Shown: positions 35,717 through 35,982 of the stretch, piece by piece
How positions within the stretch are numbered: position 1 is the stretch's first letter
Layout of the letters: each line of letters starts with the position of its first letter
Assembly: GCA_001920415.1 (NCBI GenBank)
Contig: MNJR01000004.1
Location: 1,479-65,478 of the forward strand
Length of the DNA stretch: 64,000 nucleotides
DNA from: Acidobacteria bacterium 13_1_20CM_3_53_8
GTDB taxonomy: Bacteria > Acidobacteriota > Blastocatellia > Pyrinomonadales > Pyrinomonadaceae
Direction of reading: 5' to 3'
Translations under genes and position numbers: made by a program
Notes under the pieces: model-generated
What the model was told of the DNA's origin: nothing
Databases searched by the model: none
What the model saw: only the letters and a program-made list of their open reading frames with translations

Positions 35717-35845
35717 CCCTTAGCGCTTCTTAAGCATTTCCCTTTGCTTCTACAGCGTGAACCTGCAATTCTCTTATCACTTAAGATTAATGAGAGTTGC
35801 AGTTTCTCGCTTGAGAAGCAAAGATAAGAGATAAGCTCGCTAAGG
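35717..35845. repeat. Family-I element, copy 1: ~130 bp with ~30-bp terminal inverted repeats
   Basis: cccttagcgcttcttaagcatttccctttgc ... gcaaagataagagataagctcgctaagg. It is homologous to 62561-62691, but the interior is in reverse orientation. Confidence 0.8.
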
Positions 35846-35982
35846 TGGTTGAGCAATTGCGCGTGACTTTGAACTTTGCACAGAGAGTTTGAAGGGCGGT
35901 CGTTGCTTGATAGAAATATAGAGGCTTTGCTGTTAATCTCTTCGCGCGAAAGTTAAAGCATAATGAGCCAGCTTCTTTAATC

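Follow-up and report, generated by a model that had tools for sequence, protein, structure and literature searches.

Two segments of about 130 bp, each bounded by inverted repeats, lie in the 64,000-nucleotide stretch of DNA analysed here (the window; C92:1479-65478 of the 6.1-Mb, 155-contig assembly G000). The original prediction held that their interiors are flipped relative to a shared one-sided flank, and read this as the signature of an invertible DNA segment. Does the pair represent a genetic switch, or are the two segments related in some other way?

The two copies in the window

Both segments were found, with cores at 35717-35846 (copy A) and 62561-62691 (copy B), each within a longer element on the plus strand. 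The left TTA of a TWA target duplication (35701-35703) abuts the TGA stop codon (35698-35700) of an MFS gene (34363-35700), and copy A begins three bases past this stop with a degenerate left terminal inverted repeat, GAGCTTACTTAAT (35704-35716; family consensus GAGCGCATTTCAAAAC), which forms its short end. There follow the core, a 130-bp imperfect palindrome, then a 17-nt long-end module, TTGAGCAATTGCGCGTG (35849-35865), and a degenerate right terminal repeat, ACTTTGAACTTTGC (35866-35879), the right boundary of which is approximate. Copy B is laid out in the same way. It is flanked on the left by TAA (62542-62544) and comprises the left terminal inverted repeat GGGGACATTTCAAAAT at its short end (62545-62560), a 131-bp core, the long-end module TTGAGCAGTTGTTGCG (62692-62707) and a shortened right terminal repeat, TTTTTAGCTC (62708-62717). 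The right flanking TTA (62718-62720) serves on the minus strand as the TAA stop of a MamF/MmsF-like gene (62718-63479, minus strand). As A and B have an identical overall orientation, with the short end on the left and the 17-nt module on the right, insertion of a palindrome in either orientation, which had been offered as the trivial alternative to a switch, fails to explain the pair.

The 13 nt taken for a conserved flank, GGTTGAGCA(R)TTG, do occur in the same orientation at 35847-35859 and 62690-62702. They are the start of the element's own module, inside the terminal inverted repeats, and not a flank outside it; a chance match is contradicted by the presence of this module, TTGAGCAGTTGCTACAG, at 65 of 167 classified element ends across the assembly. 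The identical 16-mer TTCTACAGCGTGAACC was likewise confirmed, at 35748-35763 (plus strand) and as its reverse complement at 62645-62660. As the ‘v’ allele of the inner stem it represents a subfamily variant, carried by about 30 of the 296 half-elements in the family, and copy A has it on both arms while copy B has it on the right arm only. The arms also carry one of two alleles of an island in the stem, alpha (CTTAAGCATTTCCCTT) or beta (CTTTGCTCTTTTCTT or CTTATCTCTTATCTT). Copy A is alpha on the left and beta on the right, and copy B is alpha on both arms, which gives it a 31-bp near-perfect stem. The claim of ~30-bp inverted arms accordingly holds for B, which resembles a pair of perfect 30-bp repeats because it is a rare alpha/alpha copy, and does not hold for A, whose arms contain a large internal loop. 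In single-strand folding, the hairpin of copy A has a predicted energy of -29.9 kcal/mol (z -6.0) and that of copy B -39.8 kcal/mol (z -10.2).

The interiors had been said to align only as reverse complements. We see that 73 nt align directly at 75% identity (35755-35827 with 62598-62670), beside an inverted alignment of 82 nt at 79% (35729-35810 with 62598-62679). Across the whole copies there are 37 mismatches in the best single orientation and 35 in the best mosaic, with near-equal parallel and antiparallel counts layer by layer, and the central loop, of ~40 nt, has the same polarity in both (delta left, gamma right). The pair is too diverged to demonstrate a clean inversion. The difference between A and B is that of one subfamily variant sitting on opposite arms, and it provides no evidence for a programmed switch. 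An inverted interior between fixed flanks is not cleanly displayed by this pair, but it is found elsewhere in the family, in paralogues and orthologues that are described below.

A family of mobile hairpins

BLAST and iterated nhmmer searches of the whole 6.1-Mb assembly recovered 148 full-length copies, and about 176 loci when fragments are included. The full element is non-coding, measures 175-190 bp and folds into one long hairpin. It consists of T(T/A)A, GAGCGCATTTCAAAAC, the ~130-bp imperfect palindrome, an optional one-sided 17-nt module TTGAGCAGTTGCTACAG, GTTTTGAAATnGCTC and a second T(T/A)A. Ends were classified by the distance from core to TTTTGAA, as the module is too variable for scoring against a fixed consensus, and this distance is bimodal, being 7-8 nt at short ends and 24-25 nt at long ends. 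The 17-nt spacing difference between the two classes corresponds to the module, the first bases of which had been taken for a flank. Both ends share the terminal consensus TTTTGAAATRnnCTCT-WA-R, beyond which conservation fades to background, and oriented copies end in the terminal inverted repeats GAGCGCATTTCAAAAC ... GTTTTGAAATnGCTC. In 29 copies the W of the flanking TWA is directly repeated, as against about 8-10 in which it is not.

Further evidence of mobility comes from the congeneric genome DATHJK01 (Pyrinomonadaceae bacterium SMAG_U12550; G001). Among 46 orthologous sites compared, 20 hold full-length copies in both genomes, and several are filled in G001 and empty in G000 (L160, L162 and L173); at L173 the G001 copy has TAA on both sides. 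Within G000, 92 copies lie between co-directional genes, 27 between convergent and 24 between divergent gene pairs, and a long ORF spans only four copies. The terminal repeats, TWA duplication, size, copy number and insertion polymorphism identify the element as a MITE, and both window loci are copies of this one non-coding mobile hairpin family of an uncultured soil Pyrinomonadaceae bacterium. A 20-mer scan of public genomes and the congeneric relative both place the host in this family of Acidobacteriota, with which an Rfam Acido-Lenti-1 hit in the window agrees. The puzzling pair is thereby explained as two members of a large set of MITEs, from a soil lineage that has received little study. 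The MITE family is new and so far undescribed, although of an ordinary kind; its instructive property is that nested inner layers are inverted or overwritten in place.

Searches for an autonomous partner gave negative results within the sequences covered. A terminal-repeat scan of the element's own, incompletely assembled genome found no repeat pair enclosing a transposase; in the incomplete assemblies PF13586 was absent and eight PF01609 hits lacked matching ends; and a pattern scan of two complete Pyrinomonadaceae chromosomes and G001 found no insertion sequence with matching terminal repeats. As no autonomous insertion sequence was found, we infer mobility from target duplication and presence/absence only. 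Rfam returned nothing for the element at gathering thresholds; at relaxed thresholds there were only plant and animal microRNA-precursor models, which we rejected as generic long-hairpin matches. A literature search with the stem 15-mer was without any match.

IS5-family elements of the IS1031 type have a 3-bp TNA duplication and termini starting with GAG. The present element has a TWA duplication and GAG termini, and we take it to resemble derivatives of this group or the eukaryotic Tourist/PIF-Harbinger MITEs. Like other TWA/TNA MITEs it is short, non-coding, high-copy and intergenic, with GAG-starting terminal repeats and presence/absence differences between related genomes. It differs from IS5/IS1031-type derivatives in that neither a cognate DDE transposase nor a full-length insertion sequence was found in our scans, and from TWA MITEs in that nearly the entire element, and not the termini alone, is one nested imperfect palindrome. 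The Correia elements of Neisseria (CREE/NEMIS) are hairpin MITEs of 100-155 bp, present in hundreds of copies and often abutting genes; their end variants combine into subtypes. They are unlike the present family in sequence and duplicate TA instead of TWA, and we know of no description of nested inner layers flipping in place in Correia elements.

Two observations concern the element ends. At 22 of the 167 classified ends, the stop codon of a long ORF (100 codons or more) falls exactly within the boundary T(T/A)A/R, being TAA in 13 cases, TAG in six and TGA in three; copy B is such a case, with the gene at 62718-63479 (minus strand). The element either targets stop codons or supplies them. 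In addition, terminal-repeat-like pairs GAGAGCTTTTCAAAAA ... GTTTTGATATGAGTTC occur 350 and 110 bp apart at C3:14928-15293 and C57:25819-25944 of G000, without the usual core. These may be other MITEs with the same ends, or shells of the present family.

Asymmetric islands between paired stems

Each copy was split into two halves that were read outside-in, giving 296 half-elements. This analysis led us to reject a ‘perfect palindrome’ consensus, which proved to be an artefact of mixed orientations. At site 68, for example, the two halves are anti-correlated, being T/A or A/T in 114 copies and the same base in 22, and the arm island is alpha/beta in 102 copies, alpha/alpha in 15 and beta/beta in five. 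Four kinds of asymmetric island can be distinguished: the outer 17-nt module, the arm island (I), the inner-stem variants (Ib and II) and the ~40-nt central loop (III). They are separated by perfectly paired stems, the longest of which is CTTTGCGCCTTTGCG(T/A)GAA.

Conservation is distributed very unevenly, with stems about 99% identical per site and a hypervariable centre. Of the 296 halves, 242 carry an identical inner stem Ib, CTTTGCGCCTTTGCG, and stem conservation lies far above the prediction for neutral decay. Other genomes also contain the 20-mer TTTGCGCCTTTGCGWGAAMM from the stem, in at least 117 stretches against about nine expected by chance by our own estimate, and usually within hairpin arms that consist of (N)CGCAAAG octamers. 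Among the taxa concerned are Bacteroidota, Cyanobacteria, Sphingomonadales, Planctomycetota, Chloroflexota and Abditibacterium. Stem conservation together with recurrence in other phyla goes beyond a purely neutral MITE model, and the sharing of this motif between phyla may merit separate study.

The orientations of the islands are nearly independent of each other. Concordance between orientation markers is high within an island (|c| about 1) and low between islands (0-0.4), and arm and centre have the same orientation in 22 copies and opposite orientations in 15 (p=0.32). Linkage is restricted to neighbouring layers, namely island I against site 18 (15 versus 41, p=7e-4) and the outer module against island I (6 versus 16). 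A pair of close paralogues, C104:7484 and C111:20768, shows a clean mosaic of this kind. Counting mismatches as parallel/antiparallel, the outer layer (3/12) and the arms (4/12) match in parallel, whereas layer II (5/1) and layer III (13/3) match in antiparallel, and the total falls from 25 mismatches to 11 once mosaicism is allowed.

The 20 orthologous full-length pairs shared with G001, with syntenic flanks that average 84% identity, provide controls at fixed positions. Here the arm island is parallel in six pairs, antiparallel in four and ambiguous in ten, and the centre is parallel in five, antiparallel in three and ambiguous in 12, so that the arm island is swapped in four of ten informative pairs and the centre in three of eight. 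The flipped loci are C61:16088, C142:23719, C21:39811, C86:47952, C1:76751, C7:13190 and C79:60535. In the pairs L134/C61:16088 and L137/C142:23719, alpha and beta trade sides and the 17-nt module keeps its side. For L184/C1:76751, an in-silico flip of the central ~90 nt cuts the mismatches from 47 to 32, which places the breakpoints in the long stem. The orthologue of copy A, L119, has the same orientation as A.

Other changes affect both arms or the loop as a whole. The ‘s’ and ‘v’ variants of the stem (GCGCCTTTGCG and GCTTCTACAGCG, respectively) differ on both arms together in three orthologous pairs, including that of copy A, a joint change that requires one arm to have been copied from the other or the whole interior to have been replaced. 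When central loops were compared with the stems as anchors, orthologous loops were mostly no closer than random paralogues (rank 40-130 of 145), differing at 39-45% of positions against 16% for flanks and inner stem. As most orthologous loops are no more alike than random paralogues, the interiors must be either overwritten or fast-changing. At the level of assembled sequence, this comparison shows that exchange occurred in place, after insertion, with the qualification that both genomes are short-read metagenome assemblies, in which misassembly within a 150-copy palindrome is possible.

Probable arm exchange and competing explanations

The best explanation of these data, and one that we hold to be probable, is a MITE family whose inner layers get inverted or overwritten in place by exchange between the arms, not by a programmed switch. 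Flipping in place over evolutionary time is most likely a passive side effect of palindromic structure. Because perfectly paired stems lie between the islands, an exchange between the two arms would invert everything inside the exchange point and leave the stems unchanged, and repeated exchanges at differing depths would randomise the relative orientation of the islands. The stems GCGAGCTT, CTTTGCGCCTTTGCG and TGCAATTCTC are possible breakpoint sites. One candidate cause would be template switching during replication, or recombination, between the inverted arms; another would be ectopic gene conversion among the ~150 copies, which could pair in either orientation. The same processes would be expected to homogenise arms, as in the alpha/alpha state of copy B, and to alter both arms in concert. 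True inversion and antiparallel ectopic conversion would leave the same pattern, and the present data would not be expected to separate them.

In the cases that two studies describe, template switching between imperfect inverted-repeat arms homogenises the arms and inverts the spacers (PMC8604942, PMC8794818). Quasipalindrome correction and the small hairpin-loop inversions of plastid DNA share with the present family the inversion of a spacer, the homogenisation of arms (alpha/alpha and beta/beta) and multi-nucleotide changes on both arms. The present case differs in that it involves ~150 dispersed mobile copies and several nested depths, with a probable further contribution from ectopic conversion between copies. 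The family offers a natural example, with orthologous controls, of a palindrome whose inner layers are inverted and overwritten in place while its paired stems stay constant.

A genetic switch is unlikely. Programmed invertons, in which a site-specific recombinase flips a segment between the arms and so causes phase variation of neighbouring genes, have in common with this family that an inverted-repeat-bounded segment occurs in both orientations between fixed flanks, as in the Hin, Fim and Bacteroides systems. The orthologous segments do differ in orientation between conserved flanks, and the unusually conserved stems could serve as recombinase sites; this much of the invertible-segment reading stands, as islands are swapped between syntenic flanks. 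A dedicated switch, however, does not fit the variable breakpoints, as flips occur at several nested depths with no fixed crossover site in the inverted repeats. Conservation is lowest in the flipped centre, which is hypervariable and so contains no conserved promoter. No layer is orientation-biased relative to gene direction. A survey of serine recombinases in the assembly turned up two large proteins, of 513 and 694 aa, and not a single small invertase of the Hin/Gin type. Three other assemblies from this population (one NCBI MAG and two from Logan) match the window where they overlap it, although such assemblies are uninformative on minority orientations. The UBA MAG contig DGBD01000263.1 is 99.955% identical over 6.7 kb and contains copy A at full length with the same sequence. 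Source reads of the present MAG and GCA_002384175.1 include, for example, the Logan-assembled runs SRR5256714 and SRR5325191. One Logan contig holds part of copy A and agrees with the window, and the other ends inside copy B after ~130 nt of element and is identical over the overlap, which covers one arm, the centre and only the inner part of the second arm and is hence weaker evidence than at A. Breakpoints at different depths, changes of ‘s’ and ‘v’ on both arms and divergent loops together favour passive exchange over a dedicated switch, and we give the inverton explanation scarcely any credence. It is very doubtful, too, that many of the ~150 hairpin loci flip appreciably in living cells, with ultra-conserved stems of the GCGCAAAG type, which recur in hairpin arms of several phyla, as sites for a conserved protein of the host or a mobile element that would promote exchange between the arms. 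If this were true, the family would constitute a genome-wide flip-flop system, either recombinase-independent or with a new recombinase, instead of a record of rare accidents. The genes of the two large serine recombinases are separated by 7 kb on C75 (29838-30263 and 37252-37683), possibly on an integrated element.

The flips could also be denied altogether, if a few master subfamilies had inserted in either orientation and the swaps between orthologues were assembly artefacts or independent insertions. That both genomes are metagenome assemblies, that repeats break contigs (the Logan contigs end inside the element) and that at each island at least half of the orthologous pairs are ambiguous all speak for this idea. 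We nevertheless find it improbable. At L134 and L137 the islands are swapped between syntenic flanks with the 17-nt module on its unchanged side, which makes independent insertion at the same base and in the same outer orientation implausible; the perfect stems, at no more than 31 bp, should be shorter than the final k-mers of the usual assemblers; and the changes from ‘s’ to ‘v’ on both arms at orthologous sites need exchange in place. The idea that the element is primarily a host-selected structure of the REP/BIME or terminator type, whose stems would be bound by a protein of the host or function as a hairpin in RNA, with mobility secondary and the islands unconstrained, draws on the contrast between the stems and the hypervariable centre, on the recurrence of TTTGCGCCTTTGCGWGAAMM in hairpin arms of many phyla, and on the position of elements beside gene 3′ ends, with a T-run after the hairpin on both strands. 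Set against it are the lack of base-pair covariation at polymorphic stem sites, with halves varying independently at sites 18 and 52, the lack of any avoidance of divergent intergenic regions or of one orientation relative to genes, the absence of Rfam matches beyond generic long-hairpin models, and the absence of any RAYT association. As the main explanation it is unlikely, yet it is compatible with a MITE and does not exclude one. The stretch CTTTGCGCCTTTGCGTGAA might bind a protein, and stem conservation hints at selection that arm exchange in a MITE would leave unaccounted for.

REPs are described in PMC3733652 as sequences of 20-40 bp that begin with a GTAG/CGTC head, lack a target duplication and occur in association with a RAYT gene. 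The present elements resemble REP/BIME sequences in being abundant intergenic palindromes and mosaics of modules, but they measure about 180 bp, have a TWA duplication and are not adjacent to Y1 transposase genes; the assembly has four of these, of IS200/RAYT type (C57:10349, C142:155260, C130:22582 and C23:2085), none next to a copy. Because of the target duplication, the size, the genomic context and the absence of an orientation bias, we rejected readings as REP/RAYT elements or as terminators only.

Returning to arm exchange within a MITE family, the result has practical consequences. Tools that detect invertible promoters from inverted repeats and flipped interiors will report such elements as false positives, and genome assemblies of the present lineage need checking at element sites.

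Other hairpin families were seen alongside this one. A few orthologous sites hold a different hairpin family in G000 where G001 carries the present MITE: at C94:26988-27105 (compared with L183) and C53:81836-81981 (compared with L154), the G000 hairpins are made of short tandem units, GGAGTCT... or GGGTAAAAGG.../CCCATTTTCC..., and one hairpin family appears to have been replaced by another at the same spot. The window itself has further intergenic hairpin families at 33014-33106, 41507-42224, 43154-43279, 57074-58894, 59711-59844 and 60552-60661, with arms of 7-nt tandem repeats (GTGATAA/GTGATGA, CAGTTTT and AAAGGCA/AAAAGT). Finally, the region 8312-8528 contains an Rfam Acido-Lenti-1 motif (46 bits, 8317-8364, minus strand), which is one arm of a 57-nt, 89% inverted repeat (8312-8368 and 8472-8528).
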